Shown here one piece after another: positions 2,183-34,797 of a DNA stretch of 46,156 nucleotides. The notes beneath the pieces were generated by a model. That model did no database searches and was not told the origin of the DNA. It was given only the letters and a program-made list of their open reading frames with translations. This DNA comes from Egibacteraceae bacterium (GTDB lineage Bacteria; Actinomycetota; Nitriliruptoria; Euzebyales; Egibacteraceae). Location: NCBI GenBank assembly GCA_035540635.1, contig DATLGH010000110.1, positions 1 to 46,156 on the forward strand. The letters run 5' to 3'. The position numbers and the translations under genes were made by a program. The stretch's first letter is position 1. The number at the start of each line of letters is the position of its first letter.

Positions 2183-2257
2183 CCGCTACCACTAGGATAC
2201 CGTCAGGCTGGTCCGATGCCGGATTTCCCCGGGCCGCGCCCGCCGAGGACCGACGTG

Positions 2258-2752
2258 ATGACCGACCTGCCGCCGCCCTACGGCCGCCCCCGCGGGCCGT
2301 CGCTCGCGAGGCCCGAGCTGCTCGCCGCCTTCCTCTCCGGCGCGGACGCGGGCAGCGCTCCCGACGCCCACATCGAGGGGGCGGTGCTCATGAGCGGTCA
2401 CCAACCCGTGGCCATGCGCATCGTGCGGGCGGTGCTCGTTCGGAGCGCCGAGATGACCGAGGACGCCGACGCCGTGCGCGCCGCGCTCTGCGCCACTCTG
2501 CGGCAGGCCGGCGCGGACCTCGTCGAGCAGGATGCGCCTCTGGCCAACCTCGTCGAGATCGAGCTCGTCGGCAGGCGCGCGGATCCCTGGGACCTCTGGG
2601 CGCAGGACGCGCAGGAGGGCCGGGCCGAGCTCGCGAGGCGCGCGCTCGGGGACATGCCGGACGCGGTCGGGATCCTCGAGGAGGACAAGGCTCGCCGGCA
2701 GGCGCAGTCGGAGATCGACGCCGCGCTGTCCGAGATCGAGCGCGAGCTCTAG
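2258..2752 (+). CDS. hypothetical protein (start may be 2216)
   Basis: ORF with a near-100% G/C third-position bias. No recognisable motifs. Confidence 0.5.
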   Translation: MTDLPPPYGRPRGPSLARPELLAAFLSGADAGSAPDAHIEGAVLMSGHQPVAMRIVRAVLVRSAEMTEDADAVRAALCATLRQAGADLVEQDAPLANLVEIELVGRRADPWDLWAQDAQEGRAELARRALGDMPDAVGILEEDKARRQAQSEIDAALSEIEREL

Positions 2753-3163: not shown

Positions 3164-3637
3164 ATGACCCCAGGCAGCGACATCCTCGAGCGCGTGCGGA
3201 CCGCCCAGGCCGAGCTCGGCACCGGCGACCCCGCGGACGCCCTCGCGCTCGTCGAGCCGCTGCTCGACGAGACGGCGGAGGCCCTGCGAAGCCTCGACTT
3301 CGTCGCGCGCTCGCCGGAGGACCGGCGCGCGGTGGTCGAGGCCTTCTGCTACGCGCGCGTGACCGCCATCCTCGCGCTCGAGTCGGTGGGGGCGACCGCG
3401 GCGGTGGGGCGCATCCGGGCGCTCGCCGCCGAGGCGCTCGACGTCGCCGCGGAGGGCAACGACGCGTGGAAGGTGCTGTGCGCCGCGGCCGAGATGCTGA
3501 GCCGGGCGGGCGACGCCGACGGCGCCGCCTCGTCGGTCATGGCCGCGGCACGCCTCGCGCCGGAGGACGTGGAGTACGTCCGCCAGCTGCGCGGCAGCAT
3601 CCGGTCGATGTTCCCCGCCGCCTTCGCCGACCGGTAG
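3164..3637 (+). CDS. hypothetical all-alpha protein
   Basis: ORF with strong GC3 bias. ATG at 3164. Confidence 0.5.
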   Translation: MTPGSDILERVRTAQAELGTGDPADALALVEPLLDETAEALRSLDFVARSPEDRRAVVEAFCYARVTAILALESVGATAAVGRIRALAAEALDVAAEGNDAWKVLCAAAEMLSRAGDADGAASSVMAAARLAPEDVEYVRQLRGSIRSMFPAAFADR

Positions 3638-3684
3638 GCCCGCCCGCTCGCGGGCCCGAGAGGCGCCGGGCGCTGCCCGGTCGG

Positions 3685-3755
3685 TGTCCCCGACACTGTG
3701 TCGGGACCTGCTAACTCGATGTTCCCCGCACTGTGTCCCGCGCTGCTAATTGGAC
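3685..3755. promoter_or_regulatory. Two ~32-bp direct repeats, each with a GACAC-N-GTGTC palindrome followed by CTGCTAAyT, upstream of the orphan hydrogenase-like gene
   Basis: Read directly: tgtccccgACACTGTGTCgggaccTGCTAActcga and ttccccgcACTGTGTCccgcgCTGCTAAttgga. An AT-richer stretch (cacgtattgag) follows. Confidence 0.35.
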
Positions 3756-3848
3756 ATTCCACGTATTGAGCAAGTCCGGTTTCCGCCCCACCATGCCGGT
3801 GAAACCGCCTCGACGTCCGTCGGGGTGACGACAGCGGAAGGACGCACG

Positions 3849-5570
3849 ATGGCGGCTGCGGCGCCCACTCCAACCCGGCCACTGACCACGCGGGAGGGCA
3901 GCGCGCGCGCTGGCCGGTCCACGATCCTCCACGACCCCGTGACCCGCGTGGGGGGAGGGCTCGGCGTCCGGGTCGAGACGCAGGGTTCCACGATCACCGA
4001 CGCGCACGTCTCGGGGACCTCGTTCCGGGGTTACGAGCCGATCCTGCTGGGACGCGACCCCCGCGACTTCCTCCCGCTCATCTCCCGTGCGTGCGGCTGG
4101 TGCGGCAGCATCCACCAGACGACCGCGTCGGTGGCCGAGGAGATGGCGTGGGGCCTGAGGCCGCCGCCGATGGCGCTCGCGCTGCGCGGGATCGCTCAGG
4201 CTACCGAGGCGATCTGGATCCACGCCGCGCACCTCGCCGTGCGGGCGGGGCCTGACTACTCCGCTCCGGTCGTGCGGAGGACCACCCCGTGGGTGTGGGA
4301 CCTCGCGAAACGCACCGAGGCGCCCGGGGCGGCGACGCACGGCTACAAGACCATCGCCGAGCTCATGGAGGAGCTGCGCTACTTCGAGGGCAAGTACTGG
4401 TGGAACACCATCCCGGCGGGCCGCAAGGTTCTCGAGATGATCAACCTCATGTACGGCAAGTACCCCCACCCGTCGGTGCTGAGCCCCGGCGGCGTCGGCT
4501 CCACCCTCACCGTGGGCAACTTCACCTACTACTACACCCGCCTCTACCAGTCGGTGGACTACGTCAAGCAGGTCATCGCCATCTGGGACGACCTCGTCGA
4601 CTTCCTCTACGCGGCCGACCCGCGATTCGCCGAACAGGGGGAGCGCCCCGCGAGCTTCATCCACGCGGGCGCCTGGGACCACGACGCCGCGAGCGGCTAC
4701 GACGGCAGCTGGGCCGGGCTGGACAACGACGGTCGCCGGCGCCTCGCTCCGCCGGGGGTCATGCTCGACGGTCGGCTCGCGACCGGTCGGCTGAGCGAGG
4801 TGAACGCCGGCGTCGAGGAGTCGGTTGCGCACTCCTTCTACAGCGGCTGGGAGTCGTCGGGGGGCACCGACCCGAGCGGAGGCGCGCTGTCCTCGGGGCA
4901 TCCGTGGAACAAGACGACCATCGCCGCGCCGGCACCGCGCGACTTCGCCGGCGCCTACTCCTGGTGCACCGCACCGCGCTGGCAGGGCAACGTCGTCGAG
5001 AGCACGCCACTCGGCCGTCTGTGGCTCACCGCGCAGCGGACGGACTTCCCGCCGAACGACTACATCGAGCCGACCGGCACGAGTGTCCGGATCCTCGTCC
5101 CGGAGAACTTCCTTCCCGAGACCATTGTCGAGTGGCACATCCCCAAGCGCGTCAACACCCTCGAGCGCCTGCGCGCCGACGCCTACGGGGTCGCGTTCTC
5201 GGGCCTCTGCGCGGCGCTCTGCGTGCTCGACGGTTTCACGCTCATGCGCCACCGCCGCACCGACGTGTCGCACGGCTTCACCGTCCCGAAGGGCGAGACG
5301 GCCGGCGTCGGACTGTTGGACTCCGGGCGTGGCATGAACGCCCACTACCTCCGGACGGACGGCAAGCGCCGGATCAGCACGATGCAGGTCGTCGGCCCGT
5401 CCACGTGGAACGCCTCGCCGCGCGACGCCACGGGCCAGCCCGGGCCGCTCGAGGAGGCGCTCATCGGCACGCCGATCATCGAGGAACCCGCAGACGGCCG
5501 CCTGACCGGTATCGACGCCATCCGAACCATTCACGGCTTTGATCCGTGTATGCACTGCGGCACGCACTAG
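3849..5570 (+). CDS. orphan [NiFe]-hydrogenase large-subunit paralog (no adjacent small subunit, no C-terminal extension)
   Basis: L1 motif RACGWCGSIHQ and L2 motif DPCMHCGTH, the latter immediately followed by the stop codon. About 40% identity to hhyL over the N-terminal ~200 aa by eye. Start ATG at 3849 with RBS GGAAGGA. Confidence 0.8.
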   Translation: MAAAAPTPTRPLTTREGSARAGRSTILHDPVTRVGGGLGVRVETQGSTITDAHVSGTSFRGYEPILLGRDPRDFLPLISRACGWCGSIHQTTASVAEEMAWGLRPPPMALALRGIAQATEAIWIHAAHLAVRAGPDYSAPVVRRTTPWVWDLAKRTEAPGAATHGYKTIAELMEELRYFEGKYWWNTIPAGRKVLEMINLMYGKYPHPSVLSPGGVGSTLTVGNFTYYYTRLYQSVDYVKQVIAIWDDLVDFLYAADPRFAEQGERPASFIHAGAWDHDAASGYDGSWAGLDNDGRRRLAPPGVMLDGRLATGRLSEVNAGVEESVAHSFYSGWESSGGTDPSGGALSSGHPWNKTTIAAPAPRDFAGAYSWCTAPRWQGNVVESTPLGRLWLTAQRTDFPPNDYIEPTGTSVRILVPENFLPETIVEWHIPKRVNTLERLRADAYGVAFSGLCAALCVLDGFTLMRHRRTDVSHGFTVPKGETAGVGLLDSGRGMNAHYLRTDGKRRISTMQVVGPSTWNASPRDATGQPGPLEEALIGTPIIEEPADGRLTGIDAIRTIHGFDPCMHCGTH

Positions 5571-5660
5571 TTTCCGCAGGCGGGTGGACCATACGTGAAG
5601 TCCACATATACTCGGGACGGAGGAAACCGAGGCGAACGAGCCTGACCGCAAGGAGCGTCG

Positions 5661-5939
5661 ATGAGCACCGGCTGGGTCATCGGCTTCGGGGTGGGCGCGG
5701 CGGTGGTGGTGGTCGTCGTCGTGCTGCTCCTGCTCATGATCGCCGGTATGCGCGCCGCGGCCATCCGGGCGGAGTCGATCCTGGCCGCCCTCCACGCCGC
5801 TCGGGACAACACCCAGGGACTCTGGGAGATCGAGCGCATCAACACCCTGACCACCCGCATCCTCGTCGCCGCCACCACCGCCCGGCAGGCGCTCGCCCGC
5901 CGGGCCGGGTACCGCGTAGGGGAGGTCGGTCAGCGATGA
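5661..5939 (+). CDS. small single-pass membrane protein, family C (paralog array 1)
   Basis: RBS AAGGAG precedes the start. N-terminal hydrophobic helix GAAVVVVVVVLLLLMIAG. Paralogous to 5936..6196, 9805..10077 and 10074..10361. Confidence 0.6.
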   Translation: MSTGWVIGFGVGAAVVVVVVVLLLLMIAGMRAAAIRAESILAALHAARDNTQGLWEIERINTLTTRILVAATTARQALARRAGYRVGEVGQR

Positions 5940-6196
5940 CCGACGAGACCCTGTGGTGGACCGCTCTCGGTCTCGGGGCGGTGGTCGCCGTCGTCGCGGT
6001 CGCCCTCCTTCAGGTGTTCCTCGGGTACGTCCGCCGGGTCGAACGGGGGGCGGAGGCGATCTGGGAGGCCGGCAAGCAGGTCGCGCGCAACACCTCGACG
6101 ACGTGGATGCTCGGGCAGACCTCCGAGCGCCTCGACGAGCTCGCCGCCGAGGCGGCGCGCCACGACGCGTTCCTGCGCTCGGTCAAGGGGGCATGA
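5936..6196 (+). CDS. small single-pass membrane protein, family C
   Basis: ATGA overlap with the upstream gene. Product MTDETLWWTALGLGAVVAVVAVALL... contains the shared W..LG.GAVV motif. Confidence 0.6.
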   Translation: MTDETLWWTALGLGAVVAVVAVALLQVFLGYVRRVERGAEAIWEAGKQVARNTSTTWMLGQTSERLDELAAEAARHDAFLRSVKGA

Positions 6197-6200
6197 GCCG

Positions 6201-6518
6201 ATGCGTCCCCTGCTCGTCGCCCTGACCGCCGCGGAGATCACCCTCGTCGTCGTCGTGCTCGCCGTGTACCTCCACAAGATCGCGGGATCGCTGCGGGCTA
6301 CCGCAGGGTTCCTCGGCAAGACGAACTTCGGCGTGCGCGCGATCGAGTCGCAGTGCGCCCCGATCGGGCCGGCGGTCACGAGGATCAACGCGCAGCTGGG
6401 CGTCATCTCGTCGGCGCTCGGCGGCCTCGCCGACCTCGCCGAGGGGCTTCCGACCCAGACCAACGGTCGGGACCCCAAGCACACCTCCTCCCGGAGAAGG
6501 AGAAAGAGCCGTGGCTGA
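6201..6518 (+). CDS. small single-pass membrane protein, family A (FGVRAI motif)
   Basis: TM helix followed by GKTNFGVRAIESQ..PIGPAV..INAQL. Paralogous to 9031..9273, 9542..9808 and 28117..28368. Confidence 0.6.
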   Translation: MRPLLVALTAAEITLVVVVLAVYLHKIAGSLRATAGFLGKTNFGVRAIESQCAPIGPAVTRINAQLGVISSALGGLADLAEGLPTQTNGRDPKHTSSRRRRKSRG

Positions 6519-6924
6519 ACTGCAGACCCCGAAGTCGGAGGCGCTGCGCGCCCTGTTCTGGAGGAGCGAGATCCTCCAGGTCATGTACTGGCTGCGGGGG
6601 GAGGGCCTCGGTGACGAGATCACCCCGCGGATGATGGAGCGCTTCCTCGGCGTGGGCGCGGAGGTCGGGGTCACCTACCTCAACCGGCTCGTCGAGGAGG
6701 GCTACCTCGACCGCACCGAGCGGGGGTTCACCCTGTCTCCCCGCGGTATCGAGGAGGGGGCGGCAGAGTTCGCGTCTTCGTTCGCCGAGCTCACCCGGCC
6801 CACCCACGGCGAGTGCAGCGCCGACTGCTGGTGCCACAACTCGCCGGAGGAGGCGGACGCCTGTGCCGCCGAGCGCGGCGCTCACAGCCACTCCCACGAT
6901 CACGACCACGACCACGACCACTGA
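6511..6924 (+). CDS. winged-helix protein with Cys4 plus His-rich (HSHSHDHDHDHDH) metal-binding tail
   Basis: GTG start with a strong RBS GGAGAAGGAG. The C-terminus reads HGECSADCWCHNSPEEADACAAERGAHSHSHDHDHDHDH. Confidence 0.6.
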   Translation: MAELQTPKSEALRALFWRSEILQVMYWLRGEGLGDEITPRMMERFLGVGAEVGVTYLNRLVEEGYLDRTERGFTLSPRGIEEGAAEFASSFAELTRPTHGECSADCWCHNSPEEADACAAERGAHSHSHDHDHDHDH

Positions 6925-6977
6925 GCCGCTGCGTCGCAGCGGCCCTGGAAGCCGAGCCGGACCCCGGGGAGCCCACC

Positions 6978-7358
6978 ATGTCCACCTCACGCATAGACGA
7001 CGCGCCGGGCGGCTTGCCCCGCAACTACCTGCGGCCCTGCCTGCTCCTCCTCCTCGGTGAGGGAGCCTCGCACGGCTACGAGCTGCTCGAGCAGGTGGGC
7101 GTCCTCGGGCTCGAGAAGGCCGACCCGGGTGGTCTCTACCGCACTCTGCGGGCCATGGAGCAGGAAGAGCTCGTGCGCTCGTGGTGGGAGCACTCCGAGT
7201 CGGGTCCCGCGCGGCGGACGTACGACCTCACGGAGGAGGGGCGTGACTGGCTCCACGCCTGGGCTGGATCCCTGCGTGAGGTGCACCGGCTGCTCGGGCT
7301 CTACCTCGACCGCTACGAGGCCCTGGTCGAGGGCTCGCACTCGACCCTCACGTCATGA
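6978..7358 (+). CDS. PadR-family transcriptional regulator
   Basis: LLLLLGEGASHGYELLEQ...GGLYRTLRAMEQEELV is a typical PadR winged helix. Confidence 0.8.
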   Translation: MSTSRIDDAPGGLPRNYLRPCLLLLLGEGASHGYELLEQVGVLGLEKADPGGLYRTLRAMEQEELVRSWWEHSESGPARRTYDLTEEGRDWLHAWAGSLREVHRLLGLYLDRYEALVEGSHSTLTS

Positions 7359-8128
7359 GGATCGCGCTCGCCGGCAAGGGCGGTGCCGGCAAGACGACGA
7401 CGTCGGCGACGCTGGCACGGCTTCTCGCCCTGGGCGGGACGCCCGTCGTCGCCATCGACGCCGACAGCAACCCCAACCTCTCCTTCGCCCTCGGCGTCCC
7501 GCGGGAGGAGGCGACGCAGGCCAGGGGCCTGCCGACCTCGCTCGTCTCCCGCCGCCTCGGTGGCCCGGGCCTGACCCAGTCGCTCGACACCGCCCTGGAC
7601 CGGCACGCGATCGTCGCGCCCGACGGGGTCCGCGTCCTGCTCATGGGGATGCCCGCGCACGCGGAGGAGGGATGCCTCTGCTCGGCGCACGCGACGGTCA
7701 GCGCGGTCCTCGAGGACCTCGGAACCCGGCAGGAGGTGGTGACGATCATGGACATGGAAGCGTCACCGGAGCACCTGAGCCGGGGCACCGCCCGCCACGT
7801 CGATCAGCTGCTGCTCATCACCGAGCCCTACTACCGGTCGCTGGAGACGGCGCGCAGGATGGCGGCCCTCGCCGCGGAGCTGCCGATCTCCCGCGTGGCC
7901 GTGGTCGGCAACAAGATCCGCTCTGAGGGCGACGCCGAGGCGATCGGCGCCTTCTCGGAGCGACACGGCCTCGAGGTGGCCGGTTACGTCCCGTGGAGCG
8001 ACGCCGTGACGGAGGCCGACGCGCAGGGCGTCCCCCTCGTCGAGCGCGACCCCGACGGTCCCGCTGTCCAGGCCATCGCCGAGCTCGCTCGGGGACTCGT
8101 CGCGTACCAGTTCCAGACGGCGGGTTAG
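7355..8128 (+). CDS. CooC/MinD-family P-loop ATPase (putative Ni-insertion accessory protein), paralog 1
   Basis: Deviant Walker A GKGGAGKTTT, DADSNPNL, and CxC motif GCLCSAHA. ATGA overlap with the PadR gene. Confidence 0.85.
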   Translation: MRIALAGKGGAGKTTTSATLARLLALGGTPVVAIDADSNPNLSFALGVPREEATQARGLPTSLVSRRLGGPGLTQSLDTALDRHAIVAPDGVRVLLMGMPAHAEEGCLCSAHATVSAVLEDLGTRQEVVTIMDMEASPEHLSRGTARHVDQLLLITEPYYRSLETARRMAALAAELPISRVAVVGNKIRSEGDAEAIGAFSERHGLEVAGYVPWSDAVTEADAQGVPLVERDPDGPAVQAIAELARGLVAYQFQTAG

Positions 8129-8189
8129 GGCACCCGCAAACCGGTTAGACTGCGGGCTGCTCCGGGCAGCTCGACCAAAGCGGTTCGCC

Positions 8190-8675
8190 ATGCCGGTTAC
8201 GCCCGTCAGTGAAGAGCGGCTCCGCGTCGTGGTCACGCGCGAGCGCCGCACGCCTCCGCGACTCTACGAGCGCAATCCCGTCGCGGGGCTCATCGTCGAG
8301 AGCATGGCGAAGGCCAGCGACCGCCACGAGCACGCCGTGCGCGATGCCGGGGCCTTCCTGCTGGACCTCCTCCGCGCGAACGAGCCCGAGGCGCCGTGCC
8401 TGTCCCTGCCCGTGGCGATGCGGGTCCTCGCCCGCGACGAGGCTCGGCCGATGGACGATGTGTGCTGCTACCTCTCGCGCACCGCACGCCAGGACGTCCT
8501 GCTCGGCATCGCCGTGCACGCCCTCGTCGGCGGCTGCGTGGGCCCGCGCCGGCGCCGCCAGGAGCACACCGACGCGCGCCGCGAGGCCGTGATCCGGACC
8601 CTCTACCTGCTGCTCCGCATGTTCGAGGCCCAGCAGCAGGTCGACGACCTCCATCACCACTACGCCGCCGACTAG
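8190..8675 (+). CDS. hypothetical protein
   Basis: ORF with a strong GC3 bias. Confidence 0.55.
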   Translation: MPVTPVSEERLRVVVTRERRTPPRLYERNPVAGLIVESMAKASDRHEHAVRDAGAFLLDLLRANEPEAPCLSLPVAMRVLARDEARPMDDVCCYLSRTARQDVLLGIAVHALVGGCVGPRRRRQEHTDARREAVIRTLYLLLRMFEAQQQVDDLHHHYAAD

Positions 8676-8806: not shown

Positions 8807-8977
8807 CTACTTCCTGGCGGACCGGAGGGCGAAGCGCTGGAGGGTCTTGCTCACGTTCTGCACCTTGTGCTTGGTGCGGAGGTGGTCAGCGACCTTGCTC
8901 AGCAGCTCGTCCTCGCTCGAGGCCTTGAAGTGGCCCTTGCAGGTTGCGCCTGCATCCGTTCAGCGGAACTCGGGCAT
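8807..8977 (-). CDS. DUF1059-like small protein with in-frame TGA at codon 6 (candidate selenocysteine; otherwise a nonsense pseudogene)
   Basis: Strong RBS AAAGGGAGGAG lies 7 nt before the ATG at 8977. Translation is MPEFR-TGA-TDAGATCKGHFKASSEDELLSKVADHLRTKHKVQNVSKTLQRFALRSARK. The TGA aligns with the Cys of the in-window paralog at 27903..28076 (MAVQLACADVGVACGAV...). Confidence 0.5.
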
Positions 8978-9030
8978 GTGCTCTGCTCCTCCCTTTGGGA
9001 CTGCCTGTCTCCAAGTCTTACCCCTTGGCG

Positions 9031-9273
9031 TCAGCCCTGCACGCCGAGGGTCTGGTCGAGCGCGACGCGGGCCTCCTCCAGGTTGGAGTAGATCTCGCCG
9101 ATGAGCGGCTCGAGCGGCTCGCCGCCCTGCGCGATCGCGCGGACACCGGCGTTGATCGTGCCGACGGTGAAGTTGACGTGGTTCAGGATGACCGCCACAC
9201 GGATGAGGTAGGCGGCGAGCACCGCGACGGTGGCGAACACGAGCACCAGGACGAACCAGCCTGCGAGTGGCAT
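9031..9273 (-). CDS. small single-pass membrane protein, family A
   Basis: Product MPLAGWFVLVLVFATVAVLAAYLIRVAVILNHVNFTVGTINAGVRAIAQG... Confidence 0.6.
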   Translation of the reverse strand: MPLAGWFVLVLVFATVAVLAAYLIRVAVILNHVNFTVGTINAGVRAIAQGGEPLEPLIGEIYSNLEEARVALDQTLGVQG

Positions 9274-9283
9274 GCGATGCTCC

Positions 9284-9529
9284 TTATCCGAGTTGCTGGA
9301 GGGCCGCGCCGTAGCTCTTGACCCCCGCGGCCACCTGTGCGGTCTGGTCGCGGGTCTCTTCGAGCAGGTCGACCCCGTCGAGGGCGGCGATGAGCAGCAC
9401 GCCGTGCTCGAGCACGTCGTCCGCGTACCGCTTGATCTCCACGATCGGTTCCATGAGGTTGTTCAGCAGGGTGATGACGACCGGGATGACGGCCAGGATG
9501 ATGATGCCGAGTACCCACAACCACAACAT
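9284..9529 (-). CDS. small single-pass membrane protein, family B (EI..YAD..LEHGV motif)
   Basis: Strong RBS GGGAGGAG. Product MLWLWVLGIIILAVIPVVITLLNNLMEPIVEIKRYADDVLEHGV... Paralogous to 28386..28634. Confidence 0.6.
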   Translation of the reverse strand: MLWLWVLGIIILAVIPVVITLLNNLMEPIVEIKRYADDVLEHGVLLIAALDGVDLLEETRDQTAQVAAGVKSYGAALQQLG

Positions 9530-9541
9530 TGTCGCTCCTCC

Positions 9542-9808
9542 CTACCGCACGGCTTGGGCGTAGCGCTGCACGTTCGACGCGATGCGGGGCAGCATCTGGT
9601 TGATCTCCCGCAGCCCCTGGTTCACGCGCTGGACGGGCGGGCCGATCGACAGCACCTGCTCCTCCACGGCGCGCACGCCGAAGGCGACGTTGGCGAGGGT
9701 AGCCGAGATCGACTTCAGCCTCGTGGTGATGACGACGAGGTAGATCGCGAGCACGAGGACGAGGAGGACCACCTCGATGAAGGTCAGGACGACGAGCAAA
9801 CCACTCAT
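9542..9808 (-). CDS. small single-pass membrane protein, family A
   Basis: Internal ATG at 9808 with ATGA overlap. Product MSGLLVVLTFIEVVLLVLVLAIYLVVITTRLKSISATLANVAFGVRAVEEQ... Confidence 0.6.
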   Translation of the reverse strand: MSGLLVVLTFIEVVLLVLVLAIYLVVITTRLKSISATLANVAFGVRAVEEQVLSIGPPVQRVNQGLREINQMLPRIASNVQRYAQAVR

Positions 9809-10077
9809 ACTTGACTCCAGAGCTGATCGTGCCGCTTGATCTCTTCCTTCAGCTTGTCCACGGTGTTGGCCGTGCCCTGCAGCTGCCAGGCCGTCGCGGT
9901 GTTCGCCGCGAGCTTCGTCGCCATCTGCCACACGTCGGCGAGACCGCGGTCGATGTCCTGGACGAACCGCAGCAGCAGGGTGAGGAGGGCGATCACGACG
10001 GCGATGACGACGGCGCCGATGCCGAGCGCCACCGACCACATCGCGATCTCCTGCGGTGCGTACGCGAGAACCCTCAT
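9805..10077 (-). CDS. small single-pass membrane protein, family C
   Basis: Product MRVLAYAPQEIAMWSVALGIGAVVIAVVIALL... ATGA overlaps with both neighbouring genes. Confidence 0.6.
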   Translation of the reverse strand: MRVLAYAPQEIAMWSVALGIGAVVIAVVIALLTLLLRFVQDIDRGLADVWQMATKLAANTATAWQLQGTANTVDKLKEEIKRHDQLWSQV

Positions 10078-10361
10078 GCCTGGGCCTCCAGTGCCTCACG
10101 GGCTTCCGTCGCGCGCTCGAGGATCGCCTTCGCGGTGGCGTTGACGGAGTCGATGTCCCACAGGGGCAGCGTCGTCTGCCGACCCTGGTCGAGGCCGACG
10201 AGGATCTCCTGCGCCTGCTTGGCGATCCGGGCCGCCCGCGACAGGATCGCCGAGACGACGATGACGACGACCCAGACGATGGCGAAACCGATTCCGAGGC
10301 CGAGCCACCACCCGAAAAGGTGCGGCTCGCCAGGGGCGTGCTCAGCTAACGTAACGAGCAT
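10074..10361 (-). CDS. small single-pass membrane protein, family C-like
   Basis: RBS AAGGAG. Product ...LFGWWLGLGIGFAIVWVVVIVVSAIL... Confidence 0.55.
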   Translation of the reverse strand: MLVTLAEHAPGEPHLFGWWLGLGIGFAIVWVVVIVVSAILSRAARIAKQAQEILVGLDQGRQTTLPLWDIDSVNATAKAILERATEAREALEAQA

Positions 10362-10411
10362 TCATCACTCCTTACTGTGCCGGAGGTTTGCCCTCCGACT
10401 ACGATCGACGG

Positions 10412-11011
10412 ATGCGGCGCGTACTCATCTTGTTCGGTGTGGCTTTCGTGGCGGGGCTCGTAGCCGTGGTGGCGGCGACGGCGGGCGAGCGGCTCATCAC
10501 CGGACCCGACGTCGCCGGGCCCCCGGACACGTCGACGGCGGGAGACGGCGAGGCCTTCGCATCCTTCACGGACGAGCGAACCGGCTTCTCGCTGTCCTAC
10601 CCGGCGGACTGGCGCAGGGTCCCCGTCGGGAGCCCCGCGGTCCGCCTGCTCGTCGCGCCACCCGACGGCGACGACTCCATCCTCGTCCGGGTCGTCACGC
10701 TCGAGGCGGACGTGACCGGCGACGATCTTCCCGCCGTACGGACCTTCACCGACCAGCTCGTCCGCGAGGGCGAGACGGTGGAGGTCCTCGGCGACCCGAC
10801 ACGCGTCGAGATCGGGGGCCTGCCGGGCATCCAGTACCTCTACACCTTCGAGGACGCGGAGTCCGGCCGGCAGGGTGTGCACTCCCACTACTTCCTGTTC
10901 GACGGGAGCACGATGTACACGATCGTGCTCCAGGCGCTGCCGGTCGAGCGCTTTGCCGAGCTCGCCCCCGCCTTCCGGGTCGTGATCGACAGCTTCGAGG
11001 TGTCGACCTGA
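10412..11011 (+). CDS. hypothetical secreted or membrane-anchored protein
   Basis: N-terminal hydrophobic segment MRRVLILFGVAFVAGLVAVVAA followed by a beta-rich domain. Confidence 0.6.
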   Translation: MRRVLILFGVAFVAGLVAVVAATAGERLITGPDVAGPPDTSTAGDGEAFASFTDERTGFSLSYPADWRRVPVGSPAVRLLVAPPDGDDSILVRVVTLEADVTGDDLPAVRTFTDQLVREGETVEVLGDPTRVEIGGLPGIQYLYTFEDAESGRQGVHSHYFLFDGSTMYTIVLQALPVERFAELAPAFRVVIDSFEVST

Positions 11012-11051
11012 CCCGGGGCGGGGGCGAGCGGGAGGCACGGTCTGTGGTTCG

Positions 11052-11726
11052 CTAGCTGACGCAGCCGGAGCCCGAGAGCAGGCCCAGGACCACGACGATC
11101 GAGTTGCAGTCGATGGAGGCGGCGTGCCCCAGGATGCTCGGGGTGTTCTCGGTGCCAACCACCTCGATGATGGCGCCCGTGTCGCTCTTGATGCCCTGCC
11201 CGAGGGCGATCACTCCGTCGGCGCGGCTGTTGATGTCCGCGACGCCCTGCTGGATCGAGTGGACGACCGGCAGGAGCGTCGAGAACGTCGCGTGGATGCC
11301 GTTCACGGACTGCTGGATGGCTGCCTCGGACGTGCCGATCGCCAGCACGTTCGGGTTGATCTGCCCGGCAGCCATCTGGTTGATCTGCCCGGCGGTGTCG
11401 AGGATCTGGGTGACGGTGCCGTCGATGCTCCCGGCCGACTCGATCACCTGATCGAGCTGTCCGGACAGGGGCGCCGCCGCGTCGCGGATGGCCGCGGCGC
11501 TCGCGTTGATCTCCTGGGTGAGCGCGACGTGCTCGGTGCCGCTGCCGATGTCGGTGACGAGGTTGCGGATCTCGAAGACCCGCTCGTCGATCGACTGCGC
11601 AGCGACGAGCGTGCCGGTGAGCATCAGCACCGCGGCGAGCGCCCAGGCGATGACGATCACCAGCGCCGCACCGGCGAGCCCTTGCTCGTCGCTGTACAGC
11701 CGCGCGTGAAGTCTCTTCGTGGTCAT
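11052..11726 (-). CDS. membrane-anchored alpha-helical repeat protein (paralog trio, member 3)
   Basis: ATG at 11726 with RBS GGAGG. TM helix followed by I/V/N/T/Q-rich repeats and a C-terminal ...SGSGCVS. The ORF-track N-terminal extension is Arg/His-rich and was rejected. Confidence 0.6.
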   Translation of the reverse strand: MTTKRLHARLYSDEQGLAGAALVIVIAWALAAVLMLTGTLVAAQSIDERVFEIRNLVTDIGSGTEHVALTQEINASAAAIRDAAAPLSGQLDQVIESAGSIDGTVTQILDTAGQINQMAAGQINPNVLAIGTSEAAIQQSVNGIHATFSTLLPVVHSIQQGVADINSRADGVIALGQGIKSDTGAIIEVVGTENTPSILGHAASIDCNSIVVVLGLLSGSGCVS

Positions 11727-11734
11727 GGGGCCTC

Positions 11735-12448
11735 CTAGCACGGACCCGGCGTGGGCAGAGCGGTGCAGATGCTCTCCAGGTGCCGGTCGGTCTGCTGGAG
11801 TCGCGGCACGACGGTGCCCGTGTCGCCCTTGACGCCGGTGAGGATCCCGTTGGCGATGTCGACGCGCATCCAGATGTTCTCCGAGGAGAAGCCCGTGCCG
11901 GCGGGCATGCCGGTGGACTGCGTCGCCTCGAGGGAGGCCAGGATTTGGTTGGCGAGCGACAGCACGGACCTCAGCGTGTCCGACGTGCCGGTGAGGCCGC
12001 CACCGGTCCCGACGAGCGAGCCCGACGTGTTGTTGAGCGACGCGAGCGTGCTCGACAGCGACGCGTCGACCTGCTGGAGCGAGCCGCGGATGGACTGCAG
12101 CTCGCTGATGATGGTCTGCGCCTGCCCCGGCACCGGGACGAGCGACTGGTCGATCGCACCGAGCGAGTCGTTCACCGTCGCGATCTGGTCGGGCAGCGGC
12201 TGGACGTGCCCGCCGACACCGGTGAGGTCCTCGTCGGCGGTCGCCAGCGCGTTGTCGATGGACACGAGCGCGTTGGTGATGCCGATGAGGAACGCGATGA
12301 CGACGAGGACGACGAGGAGACCGATGGTCACCCACACCCACAGCCACCGGGTGGTGCCGGCGGTCTCGACCGCTCCGCTCTGCCCCGACGAGACCTGGGA
12401 TGTGCGGTCGGCGGTCCCGGAGTACCTGCTCTCAAGTTTGGTTGCCAT
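11735..12448 (-). CDS. membrane-anchored alpha-helical repeat protein (paralog trio, member 2)
   Basis: RBS GGTAGGAGG. TM helix WLWVWVTIGLLVVLVVIAFLIGI followed by a repeat domain. Ends ...PTPGPC. Confidence 0.65.
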   Translation of the reverse strand: MATKLESRYSGTADRTSQVSSGQSGAVETAGTTRWLWVWVTIGLLVVLVVIAFLIGITNALVSIDNALATADEDLTGVGGHVQPLPDQIATVNDSLGAIDQSLVPVPGQAQTIISELQSIRGSLQQVDASLSSTLASLNNTSGSLVGTGGGLTGTSDTLRSVLSLANQILASLEATQSTGMPAGTGFSSENIWMRVDIANGILTGVKGDTGTVVPRLQQTDRHLESICTALPTPGPC

Positions 12449-12459
12449 GTTCTTGCCTC

Positions 12460-13143
12460 CTACCTGCCGCCGCCGGCGCAGACGCCCTGACCGGCCATCG
12501 GCCCGAGCAAGAGCTTCGTGTCGATACCGCAGGCAGTGAACTCGATGGACTGCGCGGTCGTGAGGACGTTGCCGGTGTCGTTCTTGATGCCCTGGGCCAA
12601 CCCGAGCGTGCCGTCGAGGCTGGTGTTGATCTGCACGACGTCGGCGTCGATGCGCCGGGCGACGTCGAGGATGGCCGCAGCGGTCTGGTTGATGCCGACC
12701 GCGGTCGCGTCGATGTCCTGCGCGGTCCCGCCGATGCCGCCTGCCGCGGCGGTCTGGTTGATCGTCCCGGCGGACGCCAGGATGCCGCCCGCGGTCGAGT
12801 TGATCGAGCTGGCCAGGCCGTCAACTGCCTGGGCGAGCGCGACGATCTCGGCGAGCAGGCCCTCGAGGGGCTGCGCGGTGTTGAGGATCGAGGCCGCGGT
12901 CTCGTTCGTGCGGTTCAGCTGCACGATGGAGTCCGTGGCGGTGTTGATCCCCGTTCCGGTGGCGGCGATGTTGTCGGCCTTGGCGTTGATGCTCCGCGCG
13001 GTCGACAGCGTCCGCCAGAGGAGCCCTGCGGACACCGCGACGGCGCCGAGGACGACCACCAGGACGAGAACACTCGCGATCTCGACCTGCCCGTGCTGGG
13101 CATGCCGCCGTGCTTTACCTGGTCCCTGTCGGGTCATGCCCAT
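12460..13143 (-). CDS. membrane-anchored alpha-helical repeat protein (paralog trio, member 1)
   Basis: ATG at 13143 (MGMTRQ...) with RBS GGAGG. TM helix followed by N-x-T-rich repeats. Ends ...GQGVCAGGGR. Confidence 0.6.
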   Translation of the reverse strand: MGMTRQGPGKARRHAQHGQVEIASVLVLVVVLGAVAVSAGLLWRTLSTARSINAKADNIAATGTGINTATDSIVQLNRTNETAASILNTAQPLEGLLAEIVALAQAVDGLASSINSTAGGILASAGTINQTAAAGGIGGTAQDIDATAVGINQTAAAILDVARRIDADVVQINTSLDGTLGLAQGIKNDTGNVLTTAQSIEFTACGIDTKLLLGPMAGQGVCAGGGR

Positions 13144-13468: not shown

Positions 13469-14272
13469 TCAGCCCAGGAGGGCGGCCGCCCCTGAGCGGC
13501 TCAACCGCTGGTTGGCGAGTCGCAGCGTCCGCGCGGTGTAGGTGACGAGATGGCGCAGGCGGGCGGGCGTGAGCCGTTCGCACATCCAGTCCCAGTGCAG
13601 CGACACCCAGTCGCCGGCCGCCGGCTTCGCGACGAAGGCCAGTCCGCGCTCGGCCCGCGTGGCCGTCTCCAGCCGCCGCGGCCCGAGGCTCAGCGACCGG
13701 CCGTCCCAGCGCAGGGGCCGGCTGCCCACGACGACCTGGTCCCCGCTCGCCGTCACGACCTGTCCCCAGCGGATGCGGCAGCGGTCGAGGACCTCGAGCG
13801 CCTTCTCCCCCTGGACCCCCGCCCCGAGCAGTCCGATCCACGGGTACACGCAGAACACGTGGAAGCTGTGATGGGGCACCCCACCAGCGGGAACGGCCTC
13901 GGCCAGGCGGCCCCACGCCTTGCCCGCCGGGCCCCGGAAGCGGCTCTCGAGGGACCGGCCGAACACGCTCATGTCGACCTGGTCGAGCAGCGGGCTGCCC
14001 ACCCAGTAAGCCTCTCCCACCCGGGGGTCGAGCGGGTCGTCGATCCCCGCAGCCGTGGCGATGAGCTGATAGTAGGGCCACGCGCCGGAGAAGCCCCGGG
14101 CGAGCTCGCGCAGGCCGGGGTCGACGGCTCCGGTCGCCCCGTACTCGAGAAGGGCCCGGTGGTCCGCCGGGCCGCAGTAGCCGCGGGCGTTCGGCGGGTA
14201 GGCGTACCGGGCGAACAGCAGGGCCCCGGCGTTGCCCGGTGCCGTGGATGTCGGAGCCATGGTGGGACCCAT
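13469..14272 (-). CDS. hypothetical protein (start uncertain; the ORF extends to 14332)
   Basis: ORF with a GC3 bias. No recognised motifs. Confidence 0.5.
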   Translation of the reverse strand: MGPTMAPTSTAPGNAGALLFARYAYPPNARGYCGPADHRALLEYGATGAVDPGLRELARGFSGAWPYYQLIATAAGIDDPLDPRVGEAYWVGSPLLDQVDMSVFGRSLESRFRGPAGKAWGRLAEAVPAGGVPHHSFHVFCVYPWIGLLGAGVQGEKALEVLDRCRIRWGQVVTASGDQVVVGSRPLRWDGRSLSLGPRRLETATRAERGLAFVAKPAAGDWVSLHWDWMCERLTPARLRHLVTYTARTLRLANQRLSRSGAAALLG

Positions 14273-28116: not shown

Positions 28117-28368
28117 CTACGTCCCCGCGTCGACCTTCGCTGCGAAGTCCTCCAGGGCGTCGGCGACGGCGGTGAGGTTGCCGCTCACGTCGGCCAGCGC
28201 CGGTCCGGCAGGCCCCGTGCGGTGCGCGACCGCGCGCACGCCGAAGGTGACCTTGCCGAGCGTGTCGTTGACGTGGCTGAGGATGACCACGATCCAGATG
28301 AGGTAGAAGGCCAGCGCGGCGACGAGGAGGGCGACGAGGCCGAGCGTGACGATCGCCGCTGCGGACAT
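28117..28368 (-). CDS. small single-pass membrane protein, family A
   Basis: ATG at 28368. Product MSAAAIVTLGLVALLVAALAFYLIWIVVILSHVNDTLGKVTFGVRAVAHR... Confidence 0.6.
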   Translation of the reverse strand: MSAAAIVTLGLVALLVAALAFYLIWIVVILSHVNDTLGKVTFGVRAVAHRTGPAGPALADVSGNLTAVADALEDFAAKVDAGT

Positions 28369-28385
28369 CGGCCGATTCCTCTCGG

Positions 28386-28634
28386 TCAGGCGAGACGGCG
28401 GAGCGCGCTCACGTAGCGGGCCGCGTTGTCGGTGACGCGACGAGCCACGTCGCGGGTGTCGGCCAGGGCGGGCAGGGGGTCGAGGGTACCGGTCAGCCGG
28501 ACGCCGTGCTCGAGGATCTCGTCGGCGTACTGGCGGATCTCCAACGCCTGGGCGATGACCCGGTTGGCGAGGAGGACGACGAGCGGGATGACCGCGAGCA
28601 GCCCGACGGCGTTCGCGACCCACCACAGCGTCAC
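28386..28634 (-). CDS. small single-pass membrane protein, family B
   Basis: GTG at 28634 with RBS GGAGG. Product VTLWWVANAVGLLAVIPLVVLLANRVIAQALEIRQYADEILEHGV... Confidence 0.55.
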   Translation of the reverse strand: MTLWWVANAVGLLAVIPLVVLLANRVIAQALEIRQYADEILEHGVRLTGTLDPLPALADTRDVARRVTDNAARYVSALRRLA

Positions 28635-28802
28635 GCGCGACCTCCTCGTCGTCGTGCCGGTCCGCACCTCGCCTGGCTGCCCAAAGCCGGGATACCTGCC
28701 CCCGGCGGACGACCCGACTATATCATTGCGGAGTAGTCACCCACCGCGCGCTCGGGAGGTCCGGGGCAGTGCGGATGCCGCCGCTGGACGAGGAGGACGC
28801 AA

Positions 28803-29576
28803 ATGAAGCTCGGAATCGTCGGGAAGGGCGGGGTAGGCAAGACGACCGTGTCCGCCCTCATCTCGCAGGCCTACGCCGCGCGCGGCGCCCGCGTCGTTGC
28901 CATCGACACCGACTCCAACCCCAACCTCGGCATGTCGCTCGGCATGGACTGGGACGAGATGGAGGCCGTGCCGGTCATGCCCCGTGCCCTGATCGTCGGC
29001 AGCGAGGGAGACCTGACGGCCCAGGAGGTGATCGAGAAGTACGGTCGCCCCACACCGGCCGGCCCGGTCCTCCTCTCGGCCATCCGCGTCACCCAGGCGG
29101 GCTCCGGCTGCACCTGCTCCGGCCACGCGACGGTGCGCAACTTCCTCGGCGAGGTGCTCGCGGAGGAGGCCGACGTGACGCTCATCGACATGGAGGCCGG
29201 CCTCGAGCACCTGAGCCGCTCCGGCGGCACCCTCGCGTACGCCGACGTCCTGCTCGTCGTGATGGAGCCGAGCCGCAAGTCGGTCATCACCGCTGCGCGC
29301 ACCCTCGCCCTCGCCGAGGAGCTCGGCATCCCCAGGGTGTACGGCCTCGGCAACAAGGCCCGCATGCCCGAGGACGCCGAGTTCTTCGCCGAGTTGGCTG
29401 CGGAGTACAACGTCCCCCTCGCGGGGGTCATCCCCCTCGATCCCGCCGTGGCCGACGCCGACCGGGCGGGGTCCGCGGTGACCGCCACACCCCCCGAGGC
29501 GGTGCGTGCGGCGCTCGACGCCGTCATCGACCTCATCGAGGGCTCCTCAGTGAGCGACCAGGCCCCCGTGCGCTGA
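28803..29576 (+). CDS. CooC/MinD-family P-loop ATPase, paralog 2
   Basis: Walker A GKGGVGKTT, DTDSNPNL, and CxC motif GCTCSGHA. Confidence 0.85.
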   Translation: MKLGIVGKGGVGKTTVSALISQAYAARGARVVAIDTDSNPNLGMSLGMDWDEMEAVPVMPRALIVGSEGDLTAQEVIEKYGRPTPAGPVLLSAIRVTQAGSGCTCSGHATVRNFLGEVLAEEADVTLIDMEAGLEHLSRSGGTLAYADVLLVVMEPSRKSVITAARTLALAEELGIPRVYGLGNKARMPEDAEFFAELAAEYNVPLAGVIPLDPAVADADRAGSAVTATPPEAVRAALDAVIDLIEGSSVSDQAPVR

Positions 29577-30481: not shown

Positions 30482-31219
30482 CTAGGACGCGGGGAGGAGG
30501 TCCTCGGCGAGCGCCGCGAGCGCCGCCACGGCCGGCGCGTCGGGGTCGAGGTCAAGGGGCGCGATCCCCTTGCGGTCGGCCTCGACGATCACCGGGTCGT
30601 CGGGCACACCCACGACCTCCACCCCGGGCGGAAAGGCCGCACGGATCCGCTCGAGGTCGTCCTCGCCCCGGATGCGGTTGGCGAGGACCACCGTGCGCAT
30701 CGCCGCGCGCTCCCCCGCGAGCTCGGCGGCACGGGCGCCGACCTCGAGCGACTTCGACATCGCCTCGACGACGATGACGACCACGTCGACGGCGTTCTCC
30801 GCCAGGCGCGTGAGCGTGCCGATCCCCGCCTCGCAGTCCGCGATGACCACCGATGCGCCGAACTCCCCGGACCCGAGCAACTGCTCGGGTGAGAGCCCGC
30901 ATCAGGGACAGCCCGGCTCCGGGTTCTCGATACGCGAGACGACGGCGAGCCGCACGTTGTCCGGCGCGTCGGAGCCGAAGCGGTCCATGAGCTCGGCCCA
31001 GCCAGGGGCGTGCTCCTCCTCGCCTTCGGCGAGCGCCTGACGCATCGCGTCGAGCCGCTCGGTCTCCGTGTCACCGATGCCCAGCGAGATGCCGAGGTTC
31101 GGGTTGCTGTCGCAGTCGAGCGCGACCACCCCGCGGCCCTGGCGGCCGATGGTGCGCGCCAGCACGGCCGACGTCGTCGTCTTGCCAGAGCCGCCCTTGC
31201 CGACGACCGCGATCTTCAT
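30482..31219 (-). CDS. CooC/MinD-family ATPase interrupted by one in-frame TGA (30902-30904) inside its CxC metal motif (candidate selenoprotein; otherwise a nonsense pseudogene)
   Basis: The N-terminal part (31219->30905) reads MKIAVVGKGGSGKTTTSAV...ENPEPGCP, then TGA, then CGLSPEQLLGSGEFGASVVIADCEAG... (30901->30482) in the same frame. The total is 239 aa, the normal family length. The TGA lies in the motif aligned to GCLCS and GCTCS of the paralogs. Confidence 0.5.
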
Positions 31220-31974
31220 GCGCCTGCCTCCTCAGCACGGAGCCGTTCCACCAGCAAGTCTATCGCCTTGACCGCCGGTGAGTCCGGGGCCTCCTCGATC
31301 GGGGGACGGCCTTTCCGGTCCGCTTCGGCGAGCTCCTCGTCGAGCGGCACGGCACCGACGACCTCAAGGCCCGTGCGGTCCTGCACCCGCTCGACGTCAC
31401 CGTCCTCGCAGACCTTGTTCACGACCGCCACGACCCGCGGCGCGTCCTCGGCCAGCGCGAGGCGCGCCAGGCGCTTCGCGCTGAGGATCGACTTCGCCAT
31501 CGGCTCCACCACCACGAGGATGGTGCGGGCGTAGCGACCCCAGCCGAGAAACGGCTGGCGGGTGCCCCCGGGGAGGTCGCCGACGATGTTCCACTTGTCG
31601 TCGGGCAGCTGGGCGGTGATCTGGCGGAACGCGAACTGCGAGCGAATGAGCCCGCGCCCGGAGTCGCGGATCTTGCCGAACTGCAGGACGCGCACACCGT
31701 CGGGCCCGCGCACGGCGTAGCGCTCGACGGCGTCGGCGGCCGTGAGCTCCCCGGCCAGCACGTACCGGGGGCCGGCCTCCGCCGGGTTCTCGACCACCGC
31801 CTCGTCGGGGATCCCGGCGTCGGTGGTCTCGACGCCGAGCGAGTAGGCCAGGCCGGGAAGCGGGTCGGAGTCGACGACGAGCACCGGCTCCCCACGTCGG
31901 GCGAGGAGGCGGGCGAACGTCCCCGCGATCGCGGACTTGCCGGCTCCGCCCTTGCCTACGAATGCAACGCGCAT
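31216..31974 (-). CDS. CooC/MinD-family P-loop ATPase, paralog 3 (no CxC motif)
   Basis: Walker A GKGGAGKS and DSDPLPGL. ATGA overlap with the downstream paralog. Confidence 0.8.
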   Translation of the reverse strand: MRVAFVGKGGAGKSAIAGTFARLLARRGEPVLVVDSDPLPGLAYSLGVETTDAGIPDEAVVENPAEAGPRYVLAGELTAADAVERYAVRGPDGVRVLQFGKIRDSGRGLIRSQFAFRQITAQLPDDKWNIVGDLPGGTRQPFLGWGRYARTILVVVEPMAKSILSAKRLARLALAEDAPRVVAVVNKVCEDGDVERVQDRTGLEVVGAVPLDEELAEADRKGRPPIEEAPDSPAVKAIDLLVERLRAEEAGA

Positions 31975-34386: not shown

Positions 34387-34797
34387 ATGCGACAAGCCGA
34401 GGACACCCGGGCGCAGACGCAGCGGCGTCTTGCCACCCCGGGTGACTCCGACAGTGCCCAACCGAAGAACTTCCTCCAGGCGTGCCTCCTGCTGCTTCTG
34501 CGAGAGGCCCCTTCCCACGGGTACGCGCTCATCGAGCGTCTCGAGGAGATGGGCAGCCGGCGGGACCGCGGCGTCGTCTACCGCACCCTGCGGTTCCTCG
34601 AACGTGAAGGCCTGGTGCAATCCGCCTGGGAGGACTCCCACTCCGGACCGGCCAAGCGCAGCTATGCCCTGACGCCGTACGGTGAGGAGATGCTGTCCGC
34701 ATGGGCGGAGTCGCTCCGCAGCAGCGCGCGCATGCTCGGTGAGTACCTCGAGCGTTACCACAAGGCCACGAAGGGGACCTCCGAGCAGGCGCGTTAG
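34387..34797 (+). CDS. PadR-family transcriptional regulator
   Basis: Contains LLLLLREAPSHGYALIERL...VYRTLRFLEREGLV. Confidence 0.8.
   Translation: MRQAEDTRAQTQRRLATPGDSDSAQPKNFLQACLLLLLREAPSHGYALIERLEEMGSRRDRGVVYRTLRFLEREGLVQSAWEDSHSGPAKRSYALTPYGEEMLSAWAESLRSSARMLGEYLERYHKATKGTSEQAR

Follow-up and report, generated by a model that had tools for sequence, protein, structure and literature searches.

Hydrogenases that oxidize atmospheric H2 (groups 1h, 1l, 1m, and 2a) constitute a major global H2 sink and serve as models for O2-insensitive catalysts. We analyzed a [NiFe]-hydrogenase large-subunit gene, here called L_B, in the metagenome-assembled genome (MAG) of an Egibacteraceae bacterium (Actinomycetota, class Nitriliruptoria; assembly GCA_035540635.1); the whole stretch studied, positions 1 to 46,156 of contig DATLGH010000110.1, is referred to as the window. 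Its G+C content is ~70%, and genes were called from third-position G+C. The first 35 kb form a hydrogenase island (Table 1). It opens on the reverse strand with a type A operon consisting of the small-subunit gene S_A and the large-subunit gene L_A, the latter cut by the window edge, and continues on the forward strand with L_B, followed by genes for three small single-pass transmembrane (TM) proteins, TM1', TM2', and TM3', a His-rich winged helix-turn-helix (wHTH) protein, a PadR regulator, and a CooC-like ATPase. The gene order downstream of L_B is as given in a preliminary description of the locus, which had been made from the sequence alone. That description also stated that no small-subunit gene adjoins L_B, which holds for the L_B operon and leaves out S_A, 1.85 kb 5' of L_B on the opposite strand and paired with L_A. 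S_A is the sole small-subunit gene of the window: a tblastn search with S_A across the 46 kb found no second one, including the 40 kb 3' of L_B.

L_B has the hallmarks of an intact large subunit. Its translation matches PF00374 with E = 2e-55 (189 bits; curated cut-off 25.8) and shows both the L1 (RxCGxCxxxH) and the L2 (DPCxxCxxH) signatures with all four Cys ligands; the stop codon directly follows the L2 motif DPCMHCGTH, and there is no C-terminal extension. In these points, the preliminary description was accurate, as it was in giving about 40% identity to hhyL: L_B and the L_A fragment are 43.8% identical over 185 amino acids (aa). Across the L_B relatives (the B clade, described below), the four Cys ligands are invariant, and the L1 and L2 His, the HP-loop His, and the Arg and Asp of the SPRD motif are conserved; the HP-loop His, which contacts the proximal cluster, and the SPRD Arg and Asp are invariant in the clade. 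Some clade members have Gln for the L1 His (RxCGWCGGAQ) or for the terminal L2 His (DPCMNCxxQ), the variants being P0030, P0036, P0039, P0041, and P0042; P0028, P0037, P0043, and P0044; and L011 and L013 (P and L numbers denote proteins and fetched loci). The closest solved chain is 5AA5_C (E = 2.8e-114). Structural modeling, which the preliminary description had proposed, gave an AlphaFold2 model with pLDDT 86.4 and pTM 0.89 from an alignment holding 36 clade members. The fold is predicted to be complete and canonical because this model superposes on 5AA5_C with a TM-score of 0.92 and a root-mean-square deviation of 2.1 Å over 565 columns.

The gene also shows clear constraint. The ratio of nonsynonymous to synonymous substitution rates (dN/dS) for L_B is 0.11 between the window and L015, 0.22 between the window and L003, and 0.2–0.4 for deeper pairs, whereas in the same genomes, the ratios are 0.14–0.40 for L_A and 0.05–0.21 for S_A. 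The corresponding dN values are 0.24–0.29 for L_B, 0.15–0.22 for L_A, and 0.11–0.14 for S_A. The substitution patterns indicate that the orphan gene is under purifying selection at a level comparable to L_A.

A protein search with L_B recovered ~46 clusters at 57–100% identity, after which the identity dropped sharply to 45% or less. In all ~46 members, L1 contains a Trp (RxCGWCG), and the protein stops at the His or Gln of L2 without a C-terminal extension; the same ending is found in clade members with an adjacent small-subunit gene and in other related clades. In neighbor-joining trees rooted with group 1h, the B clade was monophyletic in 100/100 bootstraps and was placed outside the clade formed by type A, the 1l-like, and related groups (85/100). 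Its mean identity is 43% to type A and 38% to 5AA5 (group 1h), as compared with 44% between type A and 5AA5 and 61% between type A and the 1l-like group; judged by the distances that separate published subgroups, the sequences make the B clade a separate subgroup. Pattern scanning of 185,579 GTDB species genomes yielded seven loci, each from an Actinomycetota MAG; six belong to the B clade, and the seventh, L014, matched at only 41%. By contrast, the search with S_A gave 7,804 proteins at E ≤ 1e-60 among 8,000 candidates scored. On these searches, the B clade appears rare and actinobacterial.

Matching a panel of window proteins to 97 fetched loci showed L_B relatives in two arrangements. In nine distinct loci (L001, L002, L010, L017, L018, L019, L020, L095, and L097), a small-subunit gene lies directly 3' of the large-subunit gene (order L→S), and these clusters hold HycI, TPR, a BirA-like gene, CooC, DUF1059, and two small TM genes. 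In another nine, the window included, no small-subunit gene follows, so that the lack of a small subunit reported in the preliminary description is real and conserved across independent loci of the same subclade. Five of the orphan loci (the window, L003, L004, L007, and L096) have L_B with TM1-3, wHTH, PadR, and CooC; L015 is arranged like the window with a group II intron reverse transcriptase at the position of TM1-3; in L006 and L009, L_B is followed by convergent CooC←PadR←wHTH; and in L094, PadR precedes L_B and coiled-coil genes follow. The gene up2 is directly 5' of L_B in 8/8 distinct orphan loci with upstream sequence, and L_B stands head-to-head with the S_A→L_A operon in all six loci with enough upstream sequence (the window, L003, L004, L006, L009, and L015). 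In L015, the closest relative (L_B 86% identical), the region 9730–12180 holds an open reading frame with group II intron-type reverse transcriptase motifs (YADD; 10383–11213, reverse strand), and a mobile intron appears to have replaced TM1-3.

The small subunits encoded directly 3' of L_B relatives, here called S_B, are close to S_A. Their identity is 66% to S_A of other loci, 70% to S_A of the orphan genomes, and 75% where S_B and S_A were compared on one contig; for comparison, S_A is 62% identical to the 1l-like small subunit and 39% to that of group 1h. S_B departs from the S_A consensus at just two positions; one of these is 133, where the Phe of S_B is also carried by S_A of all five orphan genomes. 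In the trees, S_B is nested within the diversity of S_A (83/100 bootstraps), whereas the matching large subunits are only 43% identical and phylogenetically separate. Because the large- and small-subunit trees are thus incongruent, the sequences indicate that S_A-family small subunits are the partners of the B clade. Two histories would fit: L_B may at first have borrowed S_A, which was then duplicated in some lineages, or an operon may have been duplicated, with fast divergence of its large subunit thereafter; in both cases, the S_A encoded 1.85 kb upstream would be a plausible partner of L_B in the window. The preliminary description had looked to a small-subunit gene in an operon elsewhere as evidence against its reading, and half of this was found: the sister-clade members have L→S operons with S_A-family small subunits, and the window L_B has none of its own.

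Whether linked to a small-subunit gene or not, B clade proteins are constrained alike. We took 142 columns, each at least 90% conserved in all other hydrogenases of the superfamily, of which subclade B1, holding the members with an adjacent small-subunit gene, keeps 93 and the orphan subclade 90. Sites conserved in B1 and variable in the orphans number 10, the reverse 12, and fixed differences 0, the mean conservation being 0.750 versus 0.756. Had the orphans lost the small-subunit interface, a cluster of relaxed sites would be expected, and the column comparison of B1 and orphans revealed no such cluster specific to the orphans; this indirect test suggests that the orphans have not given up the interface.

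A signature of the B clade lies at the gas channel. In the alignment to the Desulfovibrio fructosovorans V74M/L122M structure 3CUR, chain position 74 falls opposite W84 of L_B; R132 was paired with L122 by the same gap-free +10 offset, extended two residues beyond the aligned block. The V74 position is Trp in 59/59 B clade proteins and Val in 61/61 of type A, and the L122 position is Arg in 58/59 and Leu in 61/61, respectively. Both residues form part of the gas-channel wall next to the active site, and the diffusion of gas is controlled by substitutions at these positions, where regulatory hydrogenases have the bulkier Ile/Phe (PMC11023054). The Trp/Arg gate would be expected to make gas access much more restricted or to re-route it, and it fits an extremely O2-excluding isoenzyme and a slow, sensor-like protein alike. 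Being fixed at the gate defined by mutagenesis in D. fructosovorans, the pair could serve as a natural experiment in restricting gas access, and together with the separate clade, it bears out the suggestion of a noncanonical module made in the preliminary description.

On the other hand, the genes following L_B proved not to be specific to it. The preliminary description had seen possible partners in the membrane proteins and regulators. In 28 metagenome loci without L_B, however, the accessory operon lies 160–490 bp from S_A, divergent from S_A→L_A→HycI→TPR→BirA, with the order TM1-TM2-TM3-wHTH-PadR-CooC in 22 of the 28 and wHTH-PadR-CooC only in the other six. The window encodes two sets of such TM proteins, as TMa, TMb, and TMc of the reverse-strand operon with five TM genes and DUF1059 (8807–10361) are paralogues of TM1', TM2', and TM3' (38–45% identity in blastp, E 2e-17 to 4e-21). 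Because the TM genes of the type A loci without L_B match TM1'–TM3' better than TMa–TMc, sequence similarity identifies TM1'–TM3' as the ordinary accessory genes and TMa–TMc as extra paralogues. The gap between L_B and TM1' contains TGGACC-16-TATACT (5585–5612), the sole sigma-70-like match in 7 kb, and the box CATATACT in this gap is conserved in L003, L004, L007, and L096. The 28 loci and the separate promoter-like box rule out that the TM proteins, wHTH, PadR, and CooC are partners specific to the orphan; that L015, L006, L009, and L094 have lost the TM genes counts further against the TM proteins in this role. What had appeared as membrane partners and regulators of L_B are standard accessories of the neighboring enzyme family.

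L_B has putative regulatory DNA of its own upstream. The preliminary description noted a pair of palindromic direct repeats there. We found a 35-nt tandem repeat and, in its first copy, a perfect 8+8 palindrome, CCCGACAC-T-GTGTCGGG (3689–3705), yet only the second repeat copy is conserved in the closest relatives and the duplication is specific to the window; a palindrome upstream of L_B is shared with L015 and L003. The box CACGTATTGAGC may carry the −35 element of an L_B promoter. Because L_B has this box and palindrome upstream while the TM operon has a promoter-like box of its own, L_B looks like a separate transcription unit set before a preexisting accessory operon. In two type A loci without L_B, L026 and L058, long palindromes (GGTGCAACGTACA...TGTACGTTGCACC) are found in the promoter region between the divergent TM1 and S_A genes; these differ from the window palindromes and are candidate operators for PadR or the wHTH protein.

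Among the known systems, L_B is best explained as belonging to the 1h/1l/1m-type oxygen-insensitive uptake hydrogenases, within which its sequence would mark a distinct, rare actinobacterial clade. Group 1h (Hhy), represented by the actinobacterial-type hydrogenase HofG of Cupriavidus necator (PDB 5AA5), gives the best sequence and structure match, and L_B shares with HofG the replacement of the RxEGH Glu by TRxxG and membership in the family of cytosolic, O2-insensitive enzymes. It differs by its 38% identity and separate clade, by its L1 motif (RxCGWCG, as against RICGICGDNH), and by having no S→L operon; the 1h genes in Table S7 of Ortiz et al. carry a C-terminal extension, unlike L_B. The type A hydrogenase encoded beside L_B is a relative of group 1l, and its accessory set (HycI, TPR, BirA-like, CooC-like, DUF1059, and small TM proteins) is the one found in the island of L_B. 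L_A has a 20-aa extension (MDTGKGVIVREVNSCGCTLE-like), the Val/Leu gate, and the S→L order, all of which are lacking in the 43% identical L_B. Group 1m (Hhm) has adjacent small- and large-subunit genes, an HybD peptidase, an iron–sulfur (FeS)-assembly protein, CooC, TPR, BirA, DUF1059, and two small TM proteins (Ray et al. 2022, PMC9561532). By the published description only, the abundant type A cluster agrees with this list no less well than the B1 clusters with a linked small subunit do. All of the accessory genes on the list except the NifU-type FeS-assembly gene are present in the window island, and the same genes are equally found with type A clusters that have no L_B; in relatives, NifU comes after L_A. 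Adjacent small- and large-subunit genes are found in B1 (L→S) and type A (S→L) and not at L_B. Group 1l (Hyl) has its large- and small-subunit genes separated by five TM genes, whose small single-pass products have been proposed to act as membrane scaffolds for the enzyme (Ortiz et al., bioRxiv 10.1101/2020.08.06.239558; PMC13554262); AlphaFold3 modeling puts the TM helices beside a C-terminal extension that belongs to the small subunit rather than to the large one (PMC13554262). L_B resembles this group in that small single-pass TM genes adjoin the structural gene and departs from it in having three TM genes followed by regulators, no small subunit, and TM genes with an apparent promoter of their own. 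The S-TM-L loci among those fetched, L054 and L076, have a different type of large subunit, 43% identical to L_B. Our literature search found no description of an orphan large subunit in such clusters.

Our preferred but tentative reading, to which we give a probability of about 0.4, is that L_B functions as an alternative catalytic large subunit, using the small subunit S_A in common with its neighbor. L_B would be matured by the Hyp machinery of the same island with no need for C-terminal proteolysis and, having no small-subunit gene of its own, would pair with S_A from the divergent S_A-L_A operon. The cell could then possess two enzymes on one electron-transfer and membrane-tethering chassis, S_A·L_A with the Val/Leu gate and S_A·L_B with the Trp/Arg gate, of which the latter would presumably be catalytically active with much more restricted gas access. 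Transcription of L_B would apparently start at a regulated promoter belonging to this gene. With a conserved second large subunit that lacks a small subunit of its own, the cell might be able to swap catalytic subunits on one electron-transfer and membrane-anchoring chassis; alternatively, such a large subunit might serve sensing. To our knowledge, neither has been described.

Several observations weigh against this reading of a shared small subunit. The use of one small subunit by two large subunits would be without precedent known to us, though no exhaustive search for one was made, and the evidence pointing to an S_A·L_B complex is indirect. In L094, an orphan L_B has no small-subunit gene within −8.6/+3 kb, and none was found within up to 10 kb in L008, L011, and L013. 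The orphan set is poorly resolved (28% bootstrap support, as compared with 73% for B1), so that either arrangement may be ancestral. The MAG being incomplete, a dedicated small-subunit gene for L_B could sit elsewhere, and the missing extension and the bulky gate residue are hallmarks of sensory hydrogenases too.

In the reading closest to the preliminary description, L_B, alone or with S_A, would report H2 to transcription, for example via PadR or the His-rich wHTH protein, in the manner of HoxBC/HupUV. Those sensors resemble L_B in lacking the C-terminal extension and in having a bulkier residue at the tunnel gate, and the W84/Arg pair at the gate, the promoter region of L_B with its conserved palindrome, and the co-occurrence of L_B with a complete hydrogenase in the same island all argue in this direction. 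However, HoxBC/HupUV have a small subunit of their own, signal to a histidine kinase, and belong to group 2, none of which holds for L_B: of the window genes compared with Pfam, none was recognized as encoding a histidine kinase or another signal transducer, and the affinity of L_B is to group 1h rather than to group 2a Huc (E ~5e-29). PadR, wHTH, and CooC are as much at home in the 28 loci without L_B. The missing extension, which the preliminary description took as a sensory trait, is ruled out as a mark of a sensor, as it is shared by the whole clade, including the seemingly stand-alone enzyme clusters with linked small subunits in L001, L018, and L020, and by other clades. L_B is probably not the H2 sensor proposed earlier, and we consider such a role unlikely. 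We also see little probability in L_B acting without any small subunit as a free-standing protein that binds or activates H2 behind a tunnel plugged by Trp/Arg and serves as a new type of H2 sensor or regulator for the neighboring atmospheric-H2 hydrogenase; L094, L008, L011, and L013 would then represent its natural state.

L_B might also be half of an ordinary two-subunit hydrogenase, with its small subunit encoded at an unlinked site of the incomplete genome. The dedicated small subunits of the sister clade and the fact that the window covers just 46 kb of the MAG would fit this, whereas the nine orphan-type loci, which come from different samples, show no second small-subunit gene in flanks of up to ±10 kb, nor is there one 3' of L_B in the window. 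The S_A database search gave no second Egibacteraceae-labeled small subunit, a weak check since most hits carry no organism label and membership in the MAG is untestable that way. On balance, an unlinked partner gene has a low probability. HoxV/HupK, on which aerobic group 1d systems assemble the Fe(CN)2CO cofactor in the presence of air, offer another parallel, being large-subunit paralogues without a small subunit of their own in an aerobic hydrogenase cluster, and a similar scaffold role for L_B would suit the island of an aerobe-type hydrogenase rich in maturation genes (HypC, HypD, HypE, HypF, and four CooC-like ATPases). But HoxV/HupK are shorter and have lost Ni-ligand cysteines, whereas L_B is full length with the full fold and keeps all Ni and Fe ligands, including the four Cys, along with the catalytic Arg and the HP-loop His, and the sister-clade members are operonic with a small subunit; we hold a scaffold to be improbable. 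Finally, by dN, L_B has evolved a little more rapidly than the L_A and S_A genes that accompany it, as a decaying, functionless duplicate might. The reading frame is nevertheless intact in more than 46 clusters, and the low dN/dS (0.11–0.4), the invariant ligands, and the conserved synteny effectively rule out a pseudogene; decay is the least probable of the accounts that we weighed.

Table 1. Features of the hydrogenase island, in window coordinates (+, forward strand; −, reverse strand)
Feature	Position	Strand	Remarks
L_A	1–741	−	type A large subunit, N-terminal 247 aa, truncated by window edge; L1 RACGVCGGVH
S_A	773–1996	−	type A small subunit, 407 aa, PF01058/PF14720-type, 11 Cys; proposed shared partner of L_B
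up1	2216–2752	+	178 aa, no family match, conserved 5' of up2
up2	3164–3637	+	157 aa, no family match
Tandem direct repeat, 35 nt	3667–3736	.	copies 3667–3701 and 3702–3736, 71% identical
Box CACGTATTGAGC	3760–3771	+	invariant in three closest loci
L_B	3849–5570	+	[NiFe]-hydrogenase large subunit, 573 aa; translation, PF00374 match
L1 motif RACGWCGSIH (R80–H89)	4086–4115	+	includes W84 codon, 4098–4100
R132	4242–4244	+	inferred equivalent of gate residue L122
L2 motif DPCMHCGTH	5541–5567	+	stop codon directly after
Palindrome GTGGAC..GTCCAC	5584–5612	+	overlaps promoter-like TGGACC-16-TATACT, between L_B and TM1'
TM1'	5661–5939	+	~90 aa, single-pass, hydrophobic helix near N terminus
TM2'	5936–6196	+	as TM1'
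TM3'	6201–6518	+	as TM1'
His-rich wHTH protein	6511–6924	+	137 aa, weak wHTH matches, C-terminal HSHSHDHDHDHDH tail
PadR	6978–7358	+	E = 5e-17
CooC-like ATPase	7355–8128	+	CbiA/MinD-type, with GCLCS (CxC) sequence
Gene run ending in p148	5661–8675	+	p148, 148 aa, 3' of CooC-like ATPase
DUF1059	8807–8959	−	last gene of five-TM operon
TMe	9031–9273	−
TMd	9284–9529	−
TMc	9542–9799	−
TMb	9805–10077	−
TMa	10074–10361	−
Coiled-coil proteins (three)	11052–13059	−	199, 237, and 224 aa
DUF6390 protein	13469–14260	−	E = 7.5e-96
Extra paralogues	28117–28667	−
Extra paralogues	28803–29576	+
Extra paralogues	30545–31974	−
Extra paralogues	34444–34779	+

Two further kinds of large-subunit homologues were observed. 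L014, the seventh locus of the pattern scan (9908–12705, reverse strand), has a much more divergent Trp-type large subunit (L1 RICGWCGAAP; 36% identical) whose gene is followed by a small subunit grouping with S_B (90/100 bootstraps); the same MAG contig also contains a type A S→L pair with apparently frameshifted genes. Homologues of ~597 aa from Acidobacteria-type sources (P0075, P0076, P0082, P0084, P0086, P0091, P0093, P0095–P0100, and P0102–P0105) stop at "...RSFDP", just before the first L2 Cys, and have Arg/Ser in place of the L1 cysteines. They could be selenocysteine-containing genes cut at TGA by the gene caller, or hydrogenase-like proteins without ligands.

The rest of the island encodes a PsbP-like protein, three membrane-anchored coiled-coil proteins, DUF6390, HypC, SIS, HypD, and HypE, as well as VWA/MoxR, HycI, TPR, a BirA-like protein, more CooC-like ATPases, MerR, and HypF. 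Searches of NCBIfam and Pfam gave no family for up1, up2, the wHTH protein, p148, or the coiled-coil proteins. The last are Ser/Thr/Gln-rich, and their genes travel with these hydrogenase clusters, lying directly 3' of the orphan L_B in L094 (11239–13017); in the window, DUF6390 is found between them and HypC. The extra paralogues listed in Table 1 comprise second copies of TMd and TMe (42–45% identical), a second PadR (50%), and three further CooC-like ATPases that are 37–38% identical to the one at 7355–8128, so that the island encodes four CooC-like ATPases and about ten small TM proteins altogether. A Cys motif of the wHTH protein, GECSADCWCH, is kept in L015 together with the C-terminal tail, and by its sequence it looks like a metal-binding regulator, possibly for Ni.

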